A stretch of 64,000 bases of DNA, taken from Parcubacteria group bacterium (lineage in GTDB: Bacteria; Patescibacteriota; Minisyncoccia; Moranbacterales; UBA11712). The notes below the pieces were generated by a model. The model made no database searches and was not told the DNA's origin. It worked only from the letters and a program-made list of their open reading frames with translations. The DNA is taken from positions 2,032 to 66,031 of the forward strand of contig JBAZXV010000006.1 of NCBI GenBank assembly GCA_041659685.1, written 5' to 3'. The position numbers and the translations under genes were made by a program. Below are positions 3,410-32,708 of this stretch, in pieces; position 1 is the first letter of the stretch, and every line of letters begins with the position of its first letter.

Positions 3410-4078
3410 ATGACCATTCAATGGTACGGACATTCTTGTTTTAAGATTTCAACCAAGCCCGAGGGGCGCGGTTCAGGGGAAGATGTGATTGTTTTCACCG
3501 ATCCTTTTCAAAAGGAGATCGGACTCCGCCCTCCCCAGGGAAAAGCCGATATTGTGACAATAAGCCATGACCATAATGACCACAATAACTCAGATGCTCT
3601 CAGAGGAGAGCCGGCGGTTTTGGACATACCAGGAGAATATTCTATTAAAGGAGTTTCGATTAAGGGGGTCAGTTCTTTCCACGACAAGAAGGAAGGGATG
3701 GAAAATGGCTTAAACACAATATTTATATTCGAAAGCGAAGGCGTGCGATTTTGCCATCTTGGCGATTTAGCAACGCCTCTTGACAAGAAGCAGCTTGAGG
3801 AAATAAACGGAGTTGACATTTTGGCGGTCCCGGTCGGAAACCGAAAATCTCTTAATGGAAAGGAAGCTAAAGAGGTGATCGGCCAGATCGAACCGAAGAT
3901 TATTCTGCCAATGCACTATAAAATCGAAGGATCGAAATTTCAAGGCGACGACGAGAAAGTTTTTTGCAAGGAAATAGGTTCTTGTCCAAAGGAAAAACTG
4001 GCAAAATTAATTATCAAAAAGAAGGATTTGGAAGGAAAGGAGATGGAAATAGTCATGATGGAGGCATTGAGCAGCTAA
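3410..4078 (+). CDS. MBL-fold metallo-hydrolase
   Basis: 222 aa; HxHxDH metal-binding motif (ISHDHNDHN). Confidence 0.7.
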   Translation: MTIQWYGHSCFKISTKPEGRGSGEDVIVFTDPFQKEIGLRPPQGKADIVTISHDHNDHNNSDALRGEPAVLDIPGEYSIKGVSIKGVSSFHDKKEGMENGLNTIFIFESEGVRFCHLGDLATPLDKKQLEEINGVDILAVPVGNRKSLNGKEAKEVIGQIEPKIILPMHYKIEGSKFQGDDEKVFCKEIGSCPKEKLAKLIIKKKDLEGKEMEIVMMEALSS

Positions 4079-15753: not shown

Positions 15754-15825
15754 GCCGGGCTAGCTCAGTGGTAGAGCAGAAGACTGAAAATCTTTGTGTG
15801 CCCAGTTCGATTCTGGGGCCCGGCA
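15754..15825 (+). tRNA. tRNA-Phe (anticodon GAA)
   Basis: GCCGGGCTAGCTCAGTGGTAGAGC; anticodon stem GAAGA/TCTTT with loop CTGAAAA; T-arm CCCAGTTCGATTCTGGG; discriminator A. Confidence 0.85.
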
Positions 15826-15840
15826 CAGTTAATGTAATCT

Positions 15841-15912
15841 GCGGGCGTCGTATAGTGGCCATTACACGGCCTTGCCAAGGCTGAAACGGCGGTTCGATTC
15901 CGCTCGCCCGCT
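15841..15912 (+). tRNA. tRNA-Gly (anticodon GCC)
   Basis: Acceptor GCGGGCG/CGCCCGC with discriminator U; anticodon stem CGGCC/GGCTG with loop TTGCCAA; T-loop TTCGATT. Confidence 0.8.
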
Positions 15913-15952
15913 CAGAAAACGAAAGAATCCCCCCCCCTGGGGGATTTTTTTG
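15913..15952 (+). terminator. Rho-independent terminator of the tRNA cluster
   Basis: AATCCCCC-CCCT-GGGGGATTTTTTTG; the stem includes a C9 homopolymer. Confidence 0.65.
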
Positions 15953-23900: not shown

Positions 23901-24130
23901 TTTAATCTTTATTATTAATTATGATATTAAATTTATGGACAAAATTAACACCCCGCAATTATCGCAAGACATGGGTGAATATTAATAGATATATTTCTTT
24001 TTATTTCTGTTCTCCCACGCCAATATACGGGGCTCGTTAGGGTAATTATAGCAACTAAAAATATTTTGTCCAACACTCATGGATTTTGATATTTTGAGGG
24101 TTGAGAAAGTATATATTGACCGCATCTAAA

Positions 24131-25603
24131 CTAGCGCATGCTAGCGTGAAAAAATTTTTCTGCCGATAATTTAAGAAAAATTATTGGGATAAAGAAAACA
24201 ATCATTCCAAGCTTAATATCCCAAAAATAGTGATCAAACAAGGAAATGAAAAGAAAAGAAAATATAATACAATAAAAAGATAAGTATGTCAACTCTCCAT
24301 ATGATATGCTTTTTCTATTGATCTTCGGCCTCATGGTCACAGAAAAGAAAAGGAGTAAGAATATAACCCCAACGATTCCTAGCTCGCTAAAGACTAATAG
24401 GTAGATATTGTGAACGGGTTGGTATTGCCATCCTTCCATGTCTGGATATTTTTTAAATTCGCCAAAAACAAATTGCCCTATGCCGATTCCTGTCAGTGGA
24501 TGGTGAGAAATTGTTTCATATGAAACACGTTGGTATAAATTTCTTTCTTCAAGTGACTGCGTAGAAAATATTGAAGTTGCATTGATATGTGATTGGGCAA
24601 AGAATGTAACGGAGATTATTAAGATAAATATTAACACGATAATCTCACGCCGAAATATTTTTTTGAACAGCAATTTTCTGAACCAAAGAAGGCCAAGTAT
24701 CAGGCCAAGCAGGAGTCCAATAATTGCAGATCTCGAAAATGTTAATAATAATCCCATTAATAAGATTGCAAAGGTGATGACCAAGAATTGAGTTGGTATG
24801 TGATAAAAAAAAGTTCCACGTGAAACTTCCATATTGTTTTTTGCAAATACAAGACGTTTTAGCAGTAATGACAAAATAAAGAAAATTGTGATTATCAAAA
24901 AACCAGCTAAAATATTGGGATGCGGAAATGTTCCGTAGGCGCGAATATGCTTTTCTCCCCGTATGATTATTTTTGCTACCCCTTCGATGTTGCTGGCCAA
25001 AATACTCTCGCCCATCCAATGGATTCCGACTGATCTATTGAGGAAAAATTGTGCACTGCCTAAAATAGACTGAAAAAGACCGTTAATGATTAACGCCAAG
25101 AAGGCTACGTCGATCCAATTCGAGTTTTTTAGCGATTTAATGCTGATATAAGAGAAAACCAATATCTCTAAAAATGTTGAGAATCTGTAAAGCGCAAAGG
25201 CCTTATTTTGGGACCAAGAAATTGAGATTCCCATCCAAAAGATAAATACAGTTAACAATAATGTTTCACGTGAAACATTATTTAAACACTGTATTACACT
25301 TGATATAAATCGTATTACGTGGTCTAATAATGAATTATCAGATAAATCCCATACAAATTGACTATACAACCATTTTATAGTATAAATAATTATAACGGCC
25401 AACATCAGAAAATCCGCCCAACCAAGACTAGGCGTCAGGTATTCATTGAATGTTCCATCGAGAAAAGAATAAGGCGTTAAAAAAACCTTACGGATATTGA
25501 AAGAGAAAGCGGCCAAAAACAAAATGATCAAAATTTTTTCCGCATTTTGCCGGAAATACTGAAAATTTACGCGAATATTGCCCATATAAAATAAGTCTAG
25601 CAT
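24131..25603 (-). CDS. O-antigen ligase family-like polytopic membrane protein
   Basis: 490 aa; about 12 TM helices; central loop with RSAIIGLLLG-type region as in Wzy/WaaL-like proteins. Confidence 0.4.
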   Translation of the reverse strand: MLDLFYMGNIRVNFQYFRQNAEKILIILFLAAFSFNIRKVFLTPYSFLDGTFNEYLTPSLGWADFLMLAVIIIYTIKWLYSQFVWDLSDNSLLDHVIRFISSVIQCLNNVSRETLLLTVFIFWMGISISWSQNKAFALYRFSTFLEILVFSYISIKSLKNSNWIDVAFLALIINGLFQSILGSAQFFLNRSVGIHWMGESILASNIEGVAKIIIRGEKHIRAYGTFPHPNILAGFLIITIFFILSLLLKRLVFAKNNMEVSRGTFFYHIPTQFLVITFAILLMGLLLTFSRSAIIGLLLGLILGLLWFRKLLFKKIFRREIIVLIFILIISVTFFAQSHINATSIFSTQSLEERNLYQRVSYETISHHPLTGIGIGQFVFGEFKKYPDMEGWQYQPVHNIYLLVFSELGIVGVIFLLLFFSVTMRPKINRKSISYGELTYLSFYCIIFSFLFISLFDHYFWDIKLGMIVFFIPIIFLKLSAEKFFHASMR

Positions 25604-25661
25604 AATAATATTGACTTAAGAAAATATTTCACATTGATAGGTTCTATGGTACGATGCTTAT

Positions 25662-26342
25662 ATGAAGCGACCGAATGTGAAACAAAAAGTCTTAGAGCTT
25701 AGAAAAAGAGGAAAAACTTATAAGGAAATTTTGAATGCTTTAAAAGTCGATGTGCCTAAAAGCACTTTGTCTTGCTGGTGCCGTTCAATATTTTTGCCAA
25801 GCGGTTATCGAAGAAAAGTGCGTAAATATAATTTAATTAATTTGGAGAAAGCCCGAAAAATAGCGTTGCTGGTTAGAAAGAAAAAAAGATATGCTTATCT
25901 TGAGTTGCTGAAAAACCGCAATGTTCATCTTTCAAAATTGATACAAAATAGAAACATTGCAAAAATAGCACTTGCATCGTTATATCTCGGAGAGGGGCAG
26001 GGAAACATAAAAAGAGGTTCTTTGATGTTTGGGAATTCCAATCCATTAATAATAAAATTATTTCTTAATCTCTTGAGGCGCTGTTATGATATTGACGAAA
26101 AAAAATTTCGTTGCACGCTTCAATGCAGGGCTGATCAAAATGTTAAAAAATTGGAAATATTTTGGTCACATGCAACCGGAATTTCTGCTGGTCAATTCTA
26201 CAAAGCGCAGATAGATCCCCGTACTAAAGGTAAACCTTCAAAAAAATTAGACTATAAGGGAGTTTGCAGAATAGATTATTTTTCGGCAGAGATATTGATT
26301 GAGTTATTGCAAATTCCCGAAATAATTGGTAGGTTGATGTAA
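25662..26342 (+). CDS. HTH-domain protein with LAGLIDADG-like motif (paralog A); possible free-standing homing-endonuclease-like protein
   Basis: 226 aa. N-terminal HTH (QKVLELRKRGKTYKEILNALKVDVPKSTLSCW); LASLYLGEGQGN followed by SNPLIIKLFLNLL, resembling a single LAGLIDADG motif and its following helix. Paralogous to 26765-27475. Ends 7 nt before tRNA-Ala. Confidence 0.4.
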   Translation: MKRPNVKQKVLELRKRGKTYKEILNALKVDVPKSTLSCWCRSIFLPSGYRRKVRKYNLINLEKARKIALLVRKKKRYAYLELLKNRNVHLSKLIQNRNIAKIALASLYLGEGQGNIKRGSLMFGNSNPLIIKLFLNLLRRCYDIDEKKFRCTLQCRADQNVKKLEIFWSHATGISAGQFYKAQIDPRTKGKPSKKLDYKGVCRIDYFSAEILIELLQIPEIIGRLM

Positions 26343-26349
26343 TGATAAA

Positions 26350-26422
26350 GGGCCGTTGGCGCAGTTGGTAGCGCGTCTCGATGGCATCGAGAAGGTCACC
26401 GGTTCAAGTCCGGTACGGTCCA
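26350..26422 (+). tRNA. tRNA-Ala (anticodon GGC)
   Basis: GGGCCGT acceptor with G3:U70; anticodon stem TCTCG/CGAGA with loop ATGGCAT; T-arm ACCGGTTCAAGTCCGGT. Confidence 0.8.
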
Positions 26423-26425
26423 CAA

Positions 26426-26764
26426 ATGCAATCAAAAAAATTTCAACGCCGAATTGAAGACTTTGTCTGTGAAAAATGCGCAGTGTTAGTCAAAGGCAAT
26501 GGATACACGGACCATTGCCCGAATTGTTTATATGGAAAACATGTGGATGTGAACCCTGGTGACCGCGCGGCCAGTTGCGGAGGAATAATGGAGCCGGTGC
26601 GGGCGGAGGTAAAAGGCGGAAAATATTTGCTATATTATATATGTAAGGAATGCGGGCATAAATTTCGGGTGAAATCATCCAAGGATGATAACTTCGAAAC
26701 GCTTGTAAAAATAAATCGAAGGGTGAACCTTTCTAGTCCAATAGATAAAGCCATCTTGTCCTAG
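26426..26764 (+). CDS. RNHCP-like zinc-ribbon protein
   Basis: Starts at the ATG at 26426 right after tRNA-Ala (the ORF-track start at 26381 lies inside the tRNA). Pattern CEKC...TDHCPNC...C...CKEC with a conserved HCP motif. Confidence 0.45.
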   Translation: MQSKKFQRRIEDFVCEKCAVLVKGNGYTDHCPNCLYGKHVDVNPGDRAASCGGIMEPVRAEVKGGKYLLYYICKECGHKFRVKSSKDDNFETLVKINRRVNLSSPIDKAILS

Positions 26765-27475
26765 TTGACTAATATGGTTCGTTATGATAAAATGGACTTA
26801 ATGGCAAAAAATCCTTTAAGTACAAATCAGATAAAAAGAATTGTCCATCTTAGGAAGCGCGGGCATAGTCTTCCTGAAATTAGAAATAAAACAGGTCACG
26901 GAAAGGCTACAATTTTCAAGTACATTCAAAATGTTGAAATTCTCCCTAGATTTATAGAGCGATGGAATAATCGTAAAAAAAGTAGTGTATCCCGGATGAT
27001 TGAAAATCAAAAAAAGGCTCGAATTGAGGCGGAAGCTGTAATTAGGGAGATAACTAGAAAGGACAAAATTCTAATCATTGGATGCTTGTATTGGGCTGAA
27101 GGGAACAAAAAAGATTTCAGCCTATCGAATACTGATCCTGTTTTAATAAAAACTTTTATAGATTATCTGTCGGAAATAGGGGTCAAAAAAAATGATTTAA
27201 GGGTAACAGTCAGGGTTTACGAGGATATAAATATAAAGAAGGCGTGTAAATTTTGGGCAAGAGTCGTAGGGATTTCAGTGAATAAAATCAGAAATATTAA
27301 CATTCTTAAGGGAAAGAAGAAGGGAAAATTAAGATATGGAATGTGTAGGATCAGAGTAGCAAAAGGGTCATATTTTTTGAAACTTCTTAGAGCAGTAAAA
27401 GACATTATTGGAGAAAATGTTATTCCTCCCCATAGTTCAACGGATCAGAACAAGGGACTCCTAAGCCCTAGATGA
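26765..27475 (+). CDS. HTH-domain protein with LAGLIDADG-like motif (paralog B)
   Basis: 236 aa; HTH (QIKRIVHLRKRGHSLPEIRNKTGHGKATI); IGCLYWAEGNKKDFSLSNTDPVLIKTFIDYL. Shares FW..GIS and GxCRI blocks with paralog A. Its last ~17 codons run into tRNA-Arg, so the functional C-terminus is probably earlier. Confidence 0.4.
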   Translation: MTNMVRYDKMDLMAKNPLSTNQIKRIVHLRKRGHSLPEIRNKTGHGKATIFKYIQNVEILPRFIERWNNRKKSSVSRMIENQKKARIEAEAVIREITRKDKILIIGCLYWAEGNKKDFSLSNTDPVLIKTFIDYLSEIGVKKNDLRVTVRVYEDINIKKACKFWARVVGISVNKIRNINILKGKKKGKLRYGMCRIRVAKGSYFLKLLRAVKDIIGENVIPPHSSTDQNKGLLSPR

Positions 27476-27498
27476 AGGTTCGATTCCTTCTGGGGAGA
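27426..27498 (+). tRNA. tRNA-Arg (anticodon CCU)
   Basis: Acceptor CTCCCCA/TGGGGAG; D-stem GTTC/GAAC; anticodon loop CTCCTAA; T-arm GAAGGTTCGATTCCTTC; discriminator A. Confidence 0.65.
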
Positions 27499-27550
27499 CA
27501 AAAAGTAATCGGGTAAAATTTCTGCCAAGGGCAAAAGATAGAGAATATAT

Positions 27551-28177
27551 ATGAAAAACATCATTATTTTTGACGCGGATGGCGTGGTGGTTAAAAGAGA
27601 AATTTATTTCAATTCCCGACTTGAACGTGATTATGGAATACCTGCTGAAGAAACGGCGCCTTTTTTTAAAAATGAATATAAACTTTGCGCGGTGGGGAAG
27701 GCGGATTTGGAAGAAGAACTTGAAAAGCATATCGACGCTTGGGGATGGAAGGGGACGATGGATGAGCTAATCAAATATTGGTTTGAGAGTGAACGGGAGC
27801 TTGATGAGGAAATAGTTCAAGAAATAAAATCTCTGCAAGAATTGGGATATATGTGTTGCCTCGCGACAAACAACGAAGCCTACAGGACGAAATATCTGGT
27901 TCAGGAGGTCGGTCTCGGGAAGGTTTTTGATAAAACATTCTCTTCTTCCCAACTTGGATATTTGAAATCGCAAAAAAGATTTTGGGAAGAGCTGTCCGAA
28001 AGACTGGAGGGTGTTAAGAGGAATGAAGTTCTGGTCTGGGACAATGATGAAGAAAACATTAAAGCCGCGAAGGAGTTTGGGTTTACAGCGCGGAGATACA
28101 GAGGATACGATGATTTTCGAACAGAAATGCAAAAATTATTTCCGCAAATTTCATTCATTCAGCCATTGAAAAAATGA
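27551..28177 (+). CDS. HAD-superfamily hydrolase
   Basis: 208 aa; motif I IIFDADGVVV. Confidence 0.65.
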   Translation: MKNIIIFDADGVVVKREIYFNSRLERDYGIPAEETAPFFKNEYKLCAVGKADLEEELEKHIDAWGWKGTMDELIKYWFESERELDEEIVQEIKSLQELGYMCCLATNNEAYRTKYLVQEVGLGKVFDKTFSSSQLGYLKSQKRFWEELSERLEGVKRNEVLVWDNDEENIKAAKEFGFTARRYRGYDDFRTEMQKLFPQISFIQPLKK

Positions 28178-28680
28178 AAAAAAATATTATCCATGAACTT
28201 ATAATGTGCACGAATGTTTTTGTCCGGAAGGACGGAAAATATTTACTCTTAAAGCGCGCAGAGAATAAGAAGTGGGCGCCGGGCAAGGTGCATGCGATCG
28301 GCGGAAAGATAGACCCGAATGAAAATCCCTTGGAAGGGGCGAAGAGAGAGCTTTGGGAAGAATCCGGGATCCGGGCAAATAATTATAAACTCGAGGTGGT
28401 GTTTCTTGAGATTGCCCCTTATGCCGATGATCCCAATAATTGGCTGGTTTTTTATTTCACCGCCGATTACGAATCGGGAGAACCAAAAGGAAGCGAAGAA
28501 GGGGATCTGCTTTGGCTGTCGCCGGATGAAATATACGGGTCCGATCTTATCTCTTCGATGAAACCGGTAATTAAAAATATTCTGAACCCGAAGGACGGGA
28601 CGATTTTTGGAACATTAACCTATGATGGCAAAAACAACGTAATAATTGGGAAAAGCCGAATAAAAATATGCCCAGCCTGA
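28174..28680 (+). CDS. NUDIX hydrolase
   Basis: 168 aa; Nudix box GGKIDPNENPLEGAKRELWEESGI. Confidence 0.75.
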   Translation: MKKNIIHELIMCTNVFVRKDGKYLLLKRAENKKWAPGKVHAIGGKIDPNENPLEGAKRELWEESGIRANNYKLEVVFLEIAPYADDPNNWLVFYFTADYESGEPKGSEEGDLLWLSPDEIYGSDLISSMKPVIKNILNPKDGTIFGTLTYDGKNNVIIGKSRIKICPA

Positions 28681-28764
28681 AGATCGAAATGCTTAAATGG
28701 AGAACCTTTGTGGAGGTTCTTTTATGCTGGTAGAATATTTAAGTAAAAGCTAATAAATAATATT

Positions 28765-29847
28765 ATGTCAAAAAAAATCAACCTCGCCGTTATTTTCGGC
28801 GGAAAGTCCGGGGAACATGAAGTTTCTCTTTCATCAGCCAGGGGAGTGATGGGAAATCTCGACAAAGAAAAATACAATATAATTCCAATCGCCATCACGA
28901 AGAAAGGGAATTGGCTGATCGGGGACAAAGGGGCGGAATACATGAAGTTAAATTCAGACAAAGCCGGAAAGGAAGGAGCGATCAGTGCAGAGGAGTCGCA
29001 AAAGCTCGTCACGATTTCCGAAGAAGAGAAAAGTTTCGTGAAATACGCAGAGGGAAATATAAACGGAAAGATAGATATGGTTTTTCCGATTCTGCACGGG
29101 CCGTTCGGCGAAGACGGGCGGCTTCAGGGCATGCTTGATATGCTCGGCGTGCCGTATGTTTTCTCGGGAGTGCTTGCGCACGCACTCGGAATGAACAAAC
29201 CGAAAGCGAAAATAATTGCCGCAAAATTTGGAGTGCCGGTGCCGGATGATGTGGTGGTCAAAAGGGGAGAAGAACTCAATCTCGAAGAAATAATCGAAAA
29301 GTTGGCTCTTCCTATGATGGTAAAGCCATCGGAACTCGGATCCTCAGTCGGAATTTCTCTCGTCAAAACCAAAGAGGAGTTAGAAAGGGGAATTCGGGAT
29401 GCATTTTCTCATGGAGATGAAGTAATTCTCGAGCAATATATCAAAGGAAGAGAGTTCACGGTGACGGTTATGGGAAGTGATGATCCAAAAGTCTTGGCCA
29501 TTACGGAAATTATTCCTGTCATTTCGGAATTCTATGACTACAAGGCCAAATACGAAGACGGGGGATCAAAACACGTTTGCCCGGCCGAAATTTCAAAAGA
29601 AGACGAGGAAAAATTGAATCAATGCGCCGTGGCTACCTTCAAAGCAATTGGATGCCAGGATCTCGCCCGCGTCGATTTTCTCTGGAGCGAAAAGAATAAC
29701 GAATATTATTTCACCGACATCAACACCATTCCCGGCATGACCCCGACGAGTCTTGCCCCGGAAGCCGCCAGGCGGGCCGGCATGGACTTTTCACAGTTTC
29801 TCGACAGGCTGATTGAGGGCGCGATGAAAAGATCTAGTATTGGATGA
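28765..29847 (+). CDS. ddl: D-alanine--D-alanine ligase
   Basis: 360 aa; N-terminal INLAVIFGGKSGEHEVSLSSA and ATP-grasp fold typical of Ddl. Confidence 0.85.
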   Translation: MSKKINLAVIFGGKSGEHEVSLSSARGVMGNLDKEKYNIIPIAITKKGNWLIGDKGAEYMKLNSDKAGKEGAISAEESQKLVTISEEEKSFVKYAEGNINGKIDMVFPILHGPFGEDGRLQGMLDMLGVPYVFSGVLAHALGMNKPKAKIIAAKFGVPVPDDVVVKRGEELNLEEIIEKLALPMMVKPSELGSSVGISLVKTKEELERGIRDAFSHGDEVILEQYIKGREFTVTVMGSDDPKVLAITEIIPVISEFYDYKAKYEDGGSKHVCPAEISKEDEEKLNQCAVATFKAIGCQDLARVDFLWSEKNNEYYFTDINTIPGMTPTSLAPEAARRAGMDFSQFLDRLIEGAMKRSSIG

Positions 29848-31640: not shown

Positions 31641-32255
31641 TTGGCTTATCAAATTTCCCACGTCGTCTACGCAAAGAAATACCTTGAAAAAAATCCAAGG
31701 AGCGACGCAGACGCTTTCATGCTCGGGACGCTTTTTCCGGATGTCCGCAAAGTAGCTCCGGAGATCAGAAGGCGCGATACGCATTTTATTCTTCAGGAAC
31801 TTAATCCTGACTTTTCCAAGCTGTCTCCTTTCCGGGCCGGTTGGAAATTTCATCTTTGGTGCGACATGAGGCGGGAAGAGATTCTTAATGGATATGAATT
31901 TTATTCCCTGGGGGAAATCACCGATTATGAAGATGGGCTGACGGCGAAACTTTTGGAGGATGAGCTGGTATATGAAAGATACAATAATTGGGAAAAATTA
32001 TGTTATCTTCTCAACAATCCTCCGGCAATAGAAAGCTCCCTTCCCGTTTCACAGGAAACAATCGAGAGATGGTATGCGGTAATTGCGAAGTATTTTGAAA
32101 AAAAACCGGATGACAGGACCATAAAAATATTTCTCATGAAACAGCCATCGTTTGCGGATGACGCCGAAGGGATTATTGACTCACTTCGAAAATTGAGGAA
32201 TAATCTTAAGGTGGCGGAAATACTGACTAAAATTTCTGAAGAAATCATAATATAG
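31641..32255 (+). CDS. Hypothetical protein
   Basis: 204 aa; no recognisable motif. Confidence 0.4.
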   Translation: MAYQISHVVYAKKYLEKNPRSDADAFMLGTLFPDVRKVAPEIRRRDTHFILQELNPDFSKLSPFRAGWKFHLWCDMRREEILNGYEFYSLGEITDYEDGLTAKLLEDELVYERYNNWEKLCYLLNNPPAIESSLPVSQETIERWYAVIAKYFEKKPDDRTIKIFLMKQPSFADDAEGIIDSLRKLRNNLKVAEILTKISEEIII

Positions 32256-32277
32256 CTCCTTGCGGGCAACAAATAAA

Positions 32278-32643
32278 ATGAAAATTTATTTCGGGCATTC
32301 AAAAAAATTTGATTACAAAAATGAACTCTATGATCCGATCCGAAAAAGCATTTTAAATGAAGAACATGAGATAGTTTTTCCCCATGAAATGAGCGAAGCG
32401 CCTTCGAACTCGAAAAATTTTTTGAAAACGCGCGACTTAATGATCGCGGAGCTGTCGTATCCGGCGACGGGACTCGGAATTGAATTGGGATGGGCGGATG
32501 CTTTCAACGTTCCCATTTTGGGTGTTTATAGAACCGGTTCAAAAGTTTCGAGTTCAGCAAAACTACTGACGGATAATTTCATTGAATATTCTGACCCAGC
32601 AGATTTAGTTGAAAAAATAAAAATATTTTTTAACGGGCTGTAG
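32278..32643 (+). CDS. Hypothetical protein, possibly nucleoside 2-deoxyribosyltransferase-like
   Basis: MKIYFGHS N-terminus and GIELGWA segment reminiscent of the Rossmann-like deoxyribosyltransferase fold. The 3' end overlaps tRNA-Pro by 10 nt. Confidence 0.3.
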   Translation: MKIYFGHSKKFDYKNELYDPIRKSILNEEHEIVFPHEMSEAPSNSKNFLKTRDLMIAELSYPATGLGIELGWADAFNVPILGVYRTGSKVSSSAKLLTDNFIEYSDPADLVEKIKIFFNGL

Positions 32644-32708
32644 TGTATCGGCAACACGCGCGATTCGGGTTCGTGAGACAGAGGGTTCGACTCCCTCCAG
32701 CCCGACCA
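32634..32708 (+). tRNA. tRNA-Pro (anticodon CGG) with encoded CCA
   Basis: Acceptor CGGGCTG/CAGCCCG; D-stem GTGT/ACAC; anticodon stem CGCGA/TCGTG with loop TTCGGGT; T-arm GAGGGTTCGACTCCCTC; then ACCA. Confidence 0.75.

Follow-up and report, generated by a model that had tools for sequence, protein, structure and literature searches.

A superfamily of small genes tied to single tRNA genes in Patescibacteria and Actinobacteria as candidate mobile cassettes

Introduction

Contig JBAZXV010000006.1 of a Parcubacteria group bacterium (assembly GCA_041659685.1) carries two paralogous genes, here called A and B, each of which runs up to or into a tRNA gene. The analysed stretch of this contig, 64,000 nucleotides (nt) long, is referred to as the window, and coordinates given without a locus name are positions in it. 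Why should two members of one protein family both sit directly upstream of a tRNA gene? The initial annotation of the locus had proposed that the proteins combine an N-terminal helix-turn-helix (HTH) with a LAGLIDADG-like block, and that such homing-endonuclease-like genes beside tRNA genes would fit mobile activity aimed at tRNAs.

Here, we suggest that A and B are members of a large, unannotated superfamily of small mobile cassettes that target tRNA genes, a reading to which we give a probability of about 50%. A cassette consists of its own sigma-70 promoter, an open reading frame (ORF) whose mRNA is most likely leaderless, and one specific tRNA gene joined to the 3' end of the ORF. The behaviour expected of homing-endonuclease-like genes holds up: the genes look selfish, are tied to tRNAs, come and go as units and bear signs of spread. 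The LAGLIDADG fold, in contrast, is not supported.

Paralogs A and B both end at a tRNA gene

Paralog A, of 226 amino acids, is encoded at 25662-26342 on the forward strand and has the same sequence, at 100% identity, as the hypothetical protein MFA5926198.1 from a Parcubacteria group bacterium. Its stop codon lies 7 nt ahead of the tRNA-Ala(GGC) gene (26350-26423, forward strand; found by ARAGORN, and with Rfam RF00005 at 63.9 bits over model positions 1-71 of 71). Paralog B, at 26801-27475 on the same strand, reaches 50 nt into the tRNA-Arg(CCU) gene (27426-27499, forward strand; ARAGORN, and RF00005 at 63.0 bits, model positions 1-71 of 71). Both tRNA genes are contiguous, 73-74 nt long and free of introns, as the initial annotation had described of their continuity, and in the region 24000-29000 Rfam detects no group I ribozyme or other RNA family besides them. 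The two proteins are indeed paralogous; they align with a BLASTP E-value of 7e-11 and 24% identity across 218 residues, and each scores with the hidden Markov model of the other's family.

The borders of B have to be corrected. ORF B had been listed as 26765-27475, but the TTG at 26765 is the -35 box of the B promoter and the real start is the ATG at 26801. From there, 207 conserved residues extend to 27421, while the last 17 codons are unselected read-through with a stop within the tRNA.

One subfamily, one tRNA

Homologous loci were collected from other genomes and are identified below by L numbers. The B set consists of 80 genome loci from Parcubacteria, Microgenomates, WWE3 and others, with proteins 35-72% identical to B. 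In 79 of the 80, a tRNA-Arg(CCU) gene on the same strand follows directly 3' of the ORF. Subfamily A, represented by 80 metagenome loci, is linked to another tRNA: tRNA-Ala(GGC) stands 3' of the gene in 75 of the 75 loci with downstream sequence available, and a distant A-like member (L175) likewise precedes tRNA-Ala(GGC). In subfamily C, the partner downstream is a tRNA-Arg(UCU) gene with tRNA-His behind it (L151, L161-166), and subfamily D precedes tRNA-Gly(GCC), usually after tRNA-Phe (L124-126, L167-169, L176, L177).

The pattern extends to Actinobacteria, where tandem fusions of two units adjoin tRNA-Gln(UUG) in either orientation (L173:3001-4801, L170:1115-2791, L171:1497-3227). One of these loci has the gene on the same strand, 43 nt upstream of the tRNA; in the others, the gene is convergent and touches the tRNA 3' end. 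The convergent orientation shows that the linkage exists at the DNA level and is more than co-transcription. At the Actinomadura locus, tRNA-Gln(UUG) is followed by glmU and prs.

While the upstream context of the cassettes varies widely, the downstream tRNA is constant. This near-absolute adjacency of one subfamily to one tRNA is far beyond chance in independent loci, and it is stronger and more specific than the initial annotation had guessed when it proposed that the tRNA association of homologs be checked.

The stop codon falls within or overlaps tRNA-Arg in 56 of the 80 B loci, and it lies within tRNA-Ala in 55 A loci. As the B overlaps occur in all three reading frames, the overlap itself is not selected. 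The fixed trait in B is that the conserved C-terminus stops at most a few codons away from tRNA position +1.

Each cassette has its own promoter

A promoter scan places the promoter of cassette A at 25628-25655 on the forward strand, with the -35 box TTCACA at 25628-25633 and a TG-extended -10 box, TACGAT, at 25650-25655; the ATG of A lies 6 nt beyond this -10 box. Conservation of the promoter block TTGCACATTGAnAAnnTCTATGGTACAAT extends over 62 distinct A loci; 48 of these have a TAnnnT hexamer 6 nt ahead of the ATG. For cassette B, the promoter at 26765-26793 (forward strand) has the form TTGACT-17-TAAAAT with a TG, and the ATG follows 7 nt further on. With 10 of 12 matches, it ranks first among the promoter-like sites of the region. 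Across 70 distinct B loci, the corresponding arrangement TTGACA-17-TAnAAT is retained, and most of them have the ATG 6-7 nt downstream. Given this short distance between the -10 box and the ATG, the mRNAs of both A and B are most likely leaderless.

The A promoter block from TTGCACATTGA to TCTATGGTACAA (25628-25661 in the window, and in all A loci) also forms an imperfect inverted repeat across the -35 and -10 boxes. The repeat is conserved well outside the hexamers and is a candidate for an operator through which the HTH protein regulates its own gene. An origin of the A promoter from the 5' half of tRNA-Ala seemed plausible by eye but was rejected, as an nhmmer profile of 59 A promoters matches no tRNA-Ala(GGC).

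Cassettes are present or absent as units

Syntenic relatives of the window differ in cassette content. The window has both A and B, L001 has B without A, and L081 has A without B. The gene order in L001 is O-antigen-ligase-like gene, tRNA-Ala, B, tRNA-Arg, HAD hydrolase and CCA-adding enzyme. Both A and the RNHCP zinc-ribbon gene, which stands between A and B in the window, are missing there, and both differences are flush with tRNA-Ala. In L081, A is present, the tRNA-Ala is identical and the neighbouring Ddl gene is the same as in the window. Its RNHCP gene (L081:1762-2075) ends 4 nt ahead of tRNA-Arg(CCU), and it is at exactly that junction that the window has a tRNA remnant, described below, the B promoter and ORF B.

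Similar differences are seen elsewhere. Many A loci have the order tRNA-Arg(CCU), A, tRNA-Ala(GGC), and the same two tRNA genes are only 2-106 nt apart in L002, L005, L007 and L010. Subfamily D is placed between tRNA-Phe and tRNA-Gly in L124-126 and L167-169, and these two tRNA genes are adjacent in the window. In total, the fetched loci contain 42 tRNA-Arg(CCU) and 10 tRNA-Ala(GGC) genes that are free of a cassette. The cassette is thus a discrete unit of insertion or deletion at its cognate tRNA.

Two side observations belong here. The tRNA-Phe(GAA) and tRNA-Gly(GCC) genes of the window (15754-15913) are separated by 14 nt and correspond to the "empty site" that subfamily D occupies in these loci. 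The L001 contig (DATGZC010000049.1) bears the title "Candidatus Bathyarchaeia archaeon" but shares synteny with the window, is identical to it in tRNA-Arg(CCU) and 76-83% identical in the CCA-adding enzyme, and is probably mis-binned or mislabelled.

Decayed tRNA copies upstream of cassettes

Duplicated tRNA remnants occur upstream of cassettes. In the window, a decayed 5' half of tRNA-Arg(CCU) that retains the D arm and the anticodon stem and ends in "..GTCCTAG" is found at 26732-26764 on the forward strand. It ends exactly at the -35 box of the B promoter. The nhmmer model for such remnants was built from clear examples at nine other loci; it matches 129 genuine tRNA-Arg(CCU) genes first, and its match in the window (26734-26767, E 0.03) lies within the 3' end of the RNHCP ORF. 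The final approximately 11 codons of RNHCP, in the stretch 26722-26764, are encoded by the remnant. At E <0.1, a remnant is found upstream of B in 17 loci including the window. Such a remnant is made up of the acceptor stem of tRNA-Arg(CCU), its D arm, its anticodon stem and the letters "GTCCTAG", and its end meets or overlaps the -35 box.

The remnants are not limited to this arrangement. L022 is a mirror case: its upstream tRNA-Arg is intact and the copy downstream is degenerate. Two C loci (L151, L161) show a similar tRNA 5' fragment upstream, and in L148 and L105 a decayed full copy resembling tRNA-Ala lies between tRNA-Arg and the A cassette. The actinobacterial loci have no tRNA remnants above a shuffled control.

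Further tRNA-like sequences were noted at some of these loci. In C and D cassettes, T-arm-like stretches, GGTTCGAAT and GGTTCAATT, stand just 5' of the ATG (L151:87-155, L161:2880-3000, L167:2975-3000, L124:4920-4938). The entire upstream region of these cassettes may be a decayed tRNA copy that encloses the promoter, and C has the tRNA-like 5' fragment beyond the promoter. Just upstream of A in L146 (approximately 3895-3975), L151 (3864-3941) and L149, ARAGORN predicts a "tRNA-Ile(TAT)" that, like tRNA-Ala, begins with GGGCCCGTAGCTCAA. Instead of a genuine tRNA-Ile(UAU), this may be a copy of tRNA-Ala that was displaced and has mutations in its anticodon loop.

The cassette can be younger than its surroundings

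In several pairs of loci, the block of promoter, ORF and tRNA is far more similar than the flanking sequence, which indicates horizontal spread. The clearest examples come from subfamily A. Between L140 and L148, 782 nt from just past tRNA-Arg to the last base of tRNA-Ala are 89.6% identical, compared with 74% for tRNA-Arg itself and 74.6% for the upstream gene. Between L127 and L134, which come from one and the same metagenome, the identity is about 96% from the promoter on and about 75% in the flanks. For L097 and L108, the cassette has 0.46 synonymous substitutions per synonymous site (dS) and a ratio of nonsynonymous to synonymous substitution (dN/dS) of 0.11, and dS in the flanking genes is 1.1-2.4. 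The same trend is general: 71 pairs of A loci have flanking orthologs in common, and in 68 of these pairs A exceeds its flanks in identity at third codon positions, with a margin of more than 0.10 in 50 pairs.

The signal is weaker for B than for A. It is seen in L029 and L032, where 817 nt from the remnant to the tRNA-Arg 3' end align without gaps at 84% and the flanks at 70-75%, and in L049 and L054, with a third-position identity of 0.88 in the cassette and 0.59 in the flanks. From these comparisons, the block of promoter, ORF and tRNA can be younger than its surroundings. Part of the third-position excess is compositional, as cassettes are AT-rich, but the large identity steps are not explicable by composition.

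The superfamily and its HTH

Homolog searches returned 225 matches for B, 888 for A and 1,994 for a C/D profile. Nearly all are "hypothetical" proteins of 205-230 amino acids from Patescibacteria. A profile of the four subfamilies extends the superfamily to 8,980 clusters (50% identity) at E <=1e-3, of which 4,650 remain at E <=1e-10. Full-text literature searches found no description of the family or of its arrangement with tRNA genes.

Invariant or nearly invariant residues across the superfamily are, in B numbering, R18, Y97, E100, G101, N110, D112, P113, W152, G180 and C182. R18, G101, N110, W152, G180 and C182 are fully invariant, while E100, D112 and P113 are at least 90% conserved. The blocks pointed out in the initial annotation, LYLGEG in A or LYWAEG in B, FW..GI and G.CR, are all present and conserved. 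In the longer form of the first, IGCLYWAEG in B and LASLYLGEG in A, the Glu is conserved in at least 90% of members and the Gly is invariant across the four subfamilies.

The N-terminal HTH is confirmed in both proteins. Pfam HTH_38, HTH_23 and HTH_7 match 35-39 of 87 B members (about 40%, best E 4e-9), HTH_SB matches 38 of 53 A members, and the HTH matches by sequence in PDB are 2lvs and the PAI subdomain of Sleeping Beauty. By sequence, the HTH is of the transposase or resolvase type. It is also the only part of the window proteins A and B that is recognised in Pfam, NCBIfam, PHROGs, PADLOC and PDB sequence searches.

The actinobacterial members are high-GC tandem fusions of two full HTH-plus-domain units with 531-576 amino acids, for example WP_019629257.1 from the cultivable Actinomadura atramentaria. 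Such two-copy fusions suggest that the protein acts as a dimer.

The fold is not that of LAGLIDADG enzymes

AlphaFold models of the two proteins have a mean predicted local distance difference test score (pLDDT) of 90.0 for B and 92.7 for A and agree with each other. Both predict a three-helix HTH (helices 8-19, 24-31 and 35-42 in B), a long helical linker and an alpha/beta C-terminal domain of about 120 residues. The conserved motif forms the end of a helix that terminates at the conserved Glu (residues 86-100 in the B model, 97-111 in the A model). This fits a LAGLIDADG motif: positions 3 and 7 are occupied by small residues, position 8 by an acidic residue and position 9 by Gly. However, the C-terminal domain has the topology helix-beta-alpha-beta-alpha-beta-beta-alpha in both models, while the LAGLIDADG fold is alpha-beta-beta-alpha-beta-beta-alpha.

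Structure searches agree with this difference. Foldseek against PDB gave nothing significant for either model and no LAGLIDADG enzyme among the top 50; the best matches were IspF and OmpA-like/YfiB sandwiches at E 7e-3 or worse. A search of BFVD was likewise uninformative. At the sequence level, Pfam LAGLIDADG_3 matches only 6 of 87 B members (best E 0.024) and none of 53 A members, and hhalign gives probabilities of 23% against I-DmoI and 0.2% against I-CreI, with both reference sequences entered by hand. The sole non-HTH sequence match in PDB is the second LAGLIDADG motif of I-DmoI, with E 0.017 for the B profile and 0.0056 for the superfamily profile (range 0.0056-0.02); the A-family profile alone finds no LAGLIDADG match there. 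From its recurrence, this weak match may reflect a very remote kinship with LAGLIDADG enzymes.

No nuclease domain was recognised: apart from the weak LAGLIDADG matches above, LAGLIDADG, GIY-YIG, HNH, His-Cys, PD-(D/E)xK and EDxHD domains are all absent from the matches in Pfam, NCBIfam, PHROGs, PADLOC, PDB and Foldseek. A catalytic domain of a tyrosine or serine recombinase was not found in Pfam or Foldseek; the only match of this kind is to the resolvase-type HTH (HTH_7).

A proposed model for tRNA gene replacement

We suggest that the cassettes could spread in the following way. The protein would be a dimeric, sequence-specific DNA-binding enzyme or cofactor that recognises its cognate tRNA gene and promotes the insertion of its own cassette there. 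The linked tRNA copy would come in with the cassette, which would land at the resident gene or inside it, either by a homing-like repair of a break or by site-specific recombination. The resident tRNA copy would then decay, so that the essential tRNA would depend on the cassette promoter and the element would be anchored. This dependence, together with continued transfer, would keep the ORF intact.

The arrangement has a consequence for expression. As the ORF forms the 5' leader of the tRNA, RNase P would cut the tRNA out of the mRNA. In cassettes whose stop codon is within the tRNA, the processed mRNA would be non-stop, and full-length protein could be made only from the unprocessed transcript. 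It can further be speculated, with some doubt, that the C-terminal domain represents a DNA enzyme of a new type, sequence-specific and unlike the known nuclease and recombinase folds, that swaps the resident tRNA gene for its own linked copy.

Several observations weigh against mobile cassettes. First, no nuclease or recombinase fold or motif is recognised in A or B; catalysis is pure inference. Secondly, the genes behave in part like ordinary useful genes. Purifying selection on the ORFs is strong (dN/dS of approximately 0.1), and only one in about 80 B copies is disrupted (L063, split). Between the window and L001, B is 72% identical, close to the value of the CCA-adding enzyme; other neighbours are less alike than B, with 46-49% for the ligase-like protein and 58-59% for the HAD hydrolase. 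In Microgenomates, a stable arrangement of a divergent tRNA-Pro(CGG) on the minus strand, B and tRNA-Arg is kept at 23 loci, which looks like the vertical inheritance of a useful gene.

Thirdly, some traces of mobility are lacking. Most A loci have no upstream remnant. At the level of the family, there is no consistent positional difference of an "immune" kind between cassette-linked and cassette-free tRNA-Arg(CCU) or tRNA-Ala(GGC) genes, and no copies are present in IMG/VR, the INPHARED phages or the PLSDB plasmids. The cassettes have 34% GC compared with 43% in the window, and in saturated pairs this adds about 0.1 to the third-position identity. Finally, the member P0504 (L178:464-1141, L179:118-795) has no tRNA downstream. 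At its loci, an acylphosphatase gene overlaps the 3' end and a divergent tRNA-Val(UAC) lies about 90 nt upstream; P0504 either breaks the tRNA rule or stems from a cassette whose tRNA was lost.

Alternative explanations

The alternative that survives best, although we consider it unlikely, is that the protein is a host regulator. It would be a dimeric HTH autoregulator of the tRNA with which it is co-transcribed, forming a regulator-tRNA operon that is inherited mainly vertically and exchanged occasionally and passively by recombination between tRNA genes. The HTH being the only recognisable domain fits this well, as do the strong purifying selection, the long-lived synteny and the near absence of disrupted copies, and either the dyad in the A promoter block, conserved beyond the hexamers, or the B remnant at the -35 box could serve as operator. 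However, a regulator gives no reason for a spacer-free fusion to the tRNA with the stop codon inside it, and since the promoters are near consensus, an activator should be unnecessary. It also leaves unexplained the patchy presence in close relatives, the duplicated tRNA remnants and the identity steps at the cassette borders, and in the convergent actinobacterial members co-transcription is excluded.

It is more doubtful still that the protein is an RNA-binding factor, a basic protein that binds its cognate tRNA or pre-tRNA in cis and acts as a chaperone, as a helper in processing or modification, or as a protector against anticodon nucleases. The pairing of each subfamily with one tRNA would be natural under this explanation, and a protein translated next to the emerging tRNA could more readily act on it in cis. 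The composition of the protein is very basic, a GKKKGK loop is present, and the predicted beta-alpha-beta-alpha-beta-beta order resembles generic nucleic-acid-binding alpha/beta sandwiches; folds like those of IF3-C and YhbY have this order. On the other hand, no RNA-binding or tRNA-enzyme family is matched (tRNA-synt_2c stays at noise level, best E 0.023), and the convergent orientation in Actinobacteria removes the coupling in cis. Most genomes use the same tRNAs without the protein, as the cassette-free tRNA genes counted above illustrate, and the insertion and deletion behaviour, the remnants and the horizontal spread are unexplained.

Least probable of all is a canonical LAGLIDADG enzyme, a single-motif homodimer with an added HTH that cuts cassette-free tRNA alleles: the fit of the motif helix, the I-DmoI match, the tandem fusions that parallel monomeric as against homodimeric LAGLIDADG enzymes and the site-specific, free-standing behaviour suit that class, but the two independently predicted topologies, the lack of LAGLIDADG structures in the Foldseek top 50 and the sparse Pfam and profile matches speak against it.

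Two other ideas were rejected. An origin from a phage, a plasmid or a defence system finds no relatives in IMG/VR, INPHARED or PLSDB and no PADLOC match. A coupling between codon usage and the linked tRNA would have B rich in AGG and A rich in GCC, each gene depending on its own tRNA; B indeed has more AGG, but it is also richer in AGA, and A is poorer in GCC, a general AT bias.

Neighbouring genes in the window

The gene between the two cassettes had been described as an RNHCP-type zinc ribbon, and the assignment is correct. The protein of 112 amino acids (26426-26764, forward strand) matches Pfam PF12647 at 84.4 bits (gathering cut-off 24, E 5.5e-24) over profile positions 2-89 of 90. Its start is most likely the ATG at 26426, 3 nt past the tRNA-Ala 3' end; the alternative ATG at 26381 falls within tRNA-Ala. 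No Shine-Dalgarno sequence is seen at this start (26423-26430), and the mRNA may be leaderless, arising from 3' processing of tRNA-Ala. The gene is missing at the syntenic L001 locus (L001:3916-3965) and is placed elsewhere in L081, L048 and L078. RNHCP is an ordinary variable neighbour outside the cassette system.

Another overlap of an ORF with a tRNA is present in the same compact genome. An ORF of 130 amino acids (32251-32643) overlaps the 5' end of tRNA-Pro(CGG) (32634-32708) by about 10 nt; it has a weak match to Nuc_deoxyrib_tr (E 4.5e-4) and is unrelated to the A/B family. None of the other ORFs that abut tRNA genes in the window (L19, the weak Nuc_deoxyrib_tr match and unknowns) is related to A or B.

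Implications

If the proposed replacement of tRNA genes is true, the cassette would be a minimal "tRNA gene drive" of approximately 0.8 kb with a single protein, in which an essential tRNA is both target and anchor. Its superfamily would have diversified over five or more different tRNAs among Patescibacteria and Actinobacteria. A role would thereby be given to about 9,000 clusters (50% identity) that are now labelled "hypothetical" or "HTH domain-containing", and compact mobile cassettes specific for tRNA genes would be revealed both in the reduced genomes of the candidate phyla radiation (CPR) and in cultivable Actinobacteria. It would also explain why many CPR tRNA genes have protein-coding 5' leaders with stop codons inside the tRNA, and it would provide a concrete case of a selfish gene anchored by capturing the promoter of an essential gene. 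Should the protein be catalytic, the superfamily would offer new DNA-targeting proteins that are programmable by evolution, with natural variants for at least five targets of about 70 bp. Actinomadura atramentaria (WP_019629257.1) would be a cultivable test system.

Comparison with known systems

Free-standing homing endonuclease genes such as SegB, which is located in the tRNA region of phage T4, behave in many ways like the cassettes. They are small selfish ORFs between genes, occupy a fixed site at a tRNA region, are patchy among relatives, have their own expression signals and spread by gene conversion with co-conversion of the flanks. However, SegB is a phage enzyme of the GIY-YIG type, while A and B have no recognised nuclease domain. 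The cassettes are instead chromosomal, in Patescibacteria and Actinobacteria; each is joined to one tRNA with which it apparently travels, and different subfamilies have different tRNAs. SegB and tRNA loci are mentioned in PMC13096335.

LAGLIDADG enzymes such as I-DmoI and I-CreI share with the A/B family a helix that ends in an acidic residue and Gly (Glu-Gly in A and B) and the existence of single-copy and tandem forms; the profile match to I-DmoI motif 2 is weak. The A/B family differs in the predicted order of strands and helices, in the missing structural or significant Pfam match, in its N-terminal HTH and in the location of its genes, which is outside introns and inteins.

Elements with tyrosine integrases, both phages and integrative and conjugative elements, also target a specific tRNA and regenerate a functional one; they leave a partial tRNA duplicate at their flank, as is seen at a part of the cassette loci. 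The anticodon loop is a classic integrase crossover site, and the breakpoint of the B remnant lies in the anticodon loop as it does for tRNA-targeting integrative elements. The cassettes are much smaller, approximately 0.75-0.8 kb with one protein of about 205-250 amino acids, and have neither an integrase fold nor cargo. In addition, their duplicate is of the 5' half of the tRNA, so that the tRNA is regenerated with a new promoter, while in classic integrative elements it is the 3' half that is duplicated.

Group I introns with homing endonucleases are found in the anticodon loops of bacterial tRNA-Arg(CCU), tRNA-Leu(UAA) and, with I-Ssp6803I, tRNA-fMet. The cassettes target the same class of genes including tRNA-Arg(CCU), and the anticodon-loop breakpoint of B is another likeness. 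The invasion of bacterial tRNA genes by group I introns is confirmed in PMC3984707. At the window locus, in contrast, the tRNAs are contiguous, Rfam finds no ribozyme and the ORF lies upstream of a complete tRNA.

The last comparison is with two retrotransposons, the yeast element Ty3 and the Dictyostelium element TRE5-A, which also insert directly 5' of tRNA genes. For these elements, the position 5' of a tRNA gene is a "safe haven". They are eukaryotic, move through RNA, are targeted by RNA polymerase III factors and show no specificity for a single tRNA, while the cassettes have no reverse transcriptase. The cassettes thus differ from all of the closest systems: they have no known catalytic fold, they are joined to a complete tRNA on its 5' side and apparently travel with it, and they do so at several different tRNAs.

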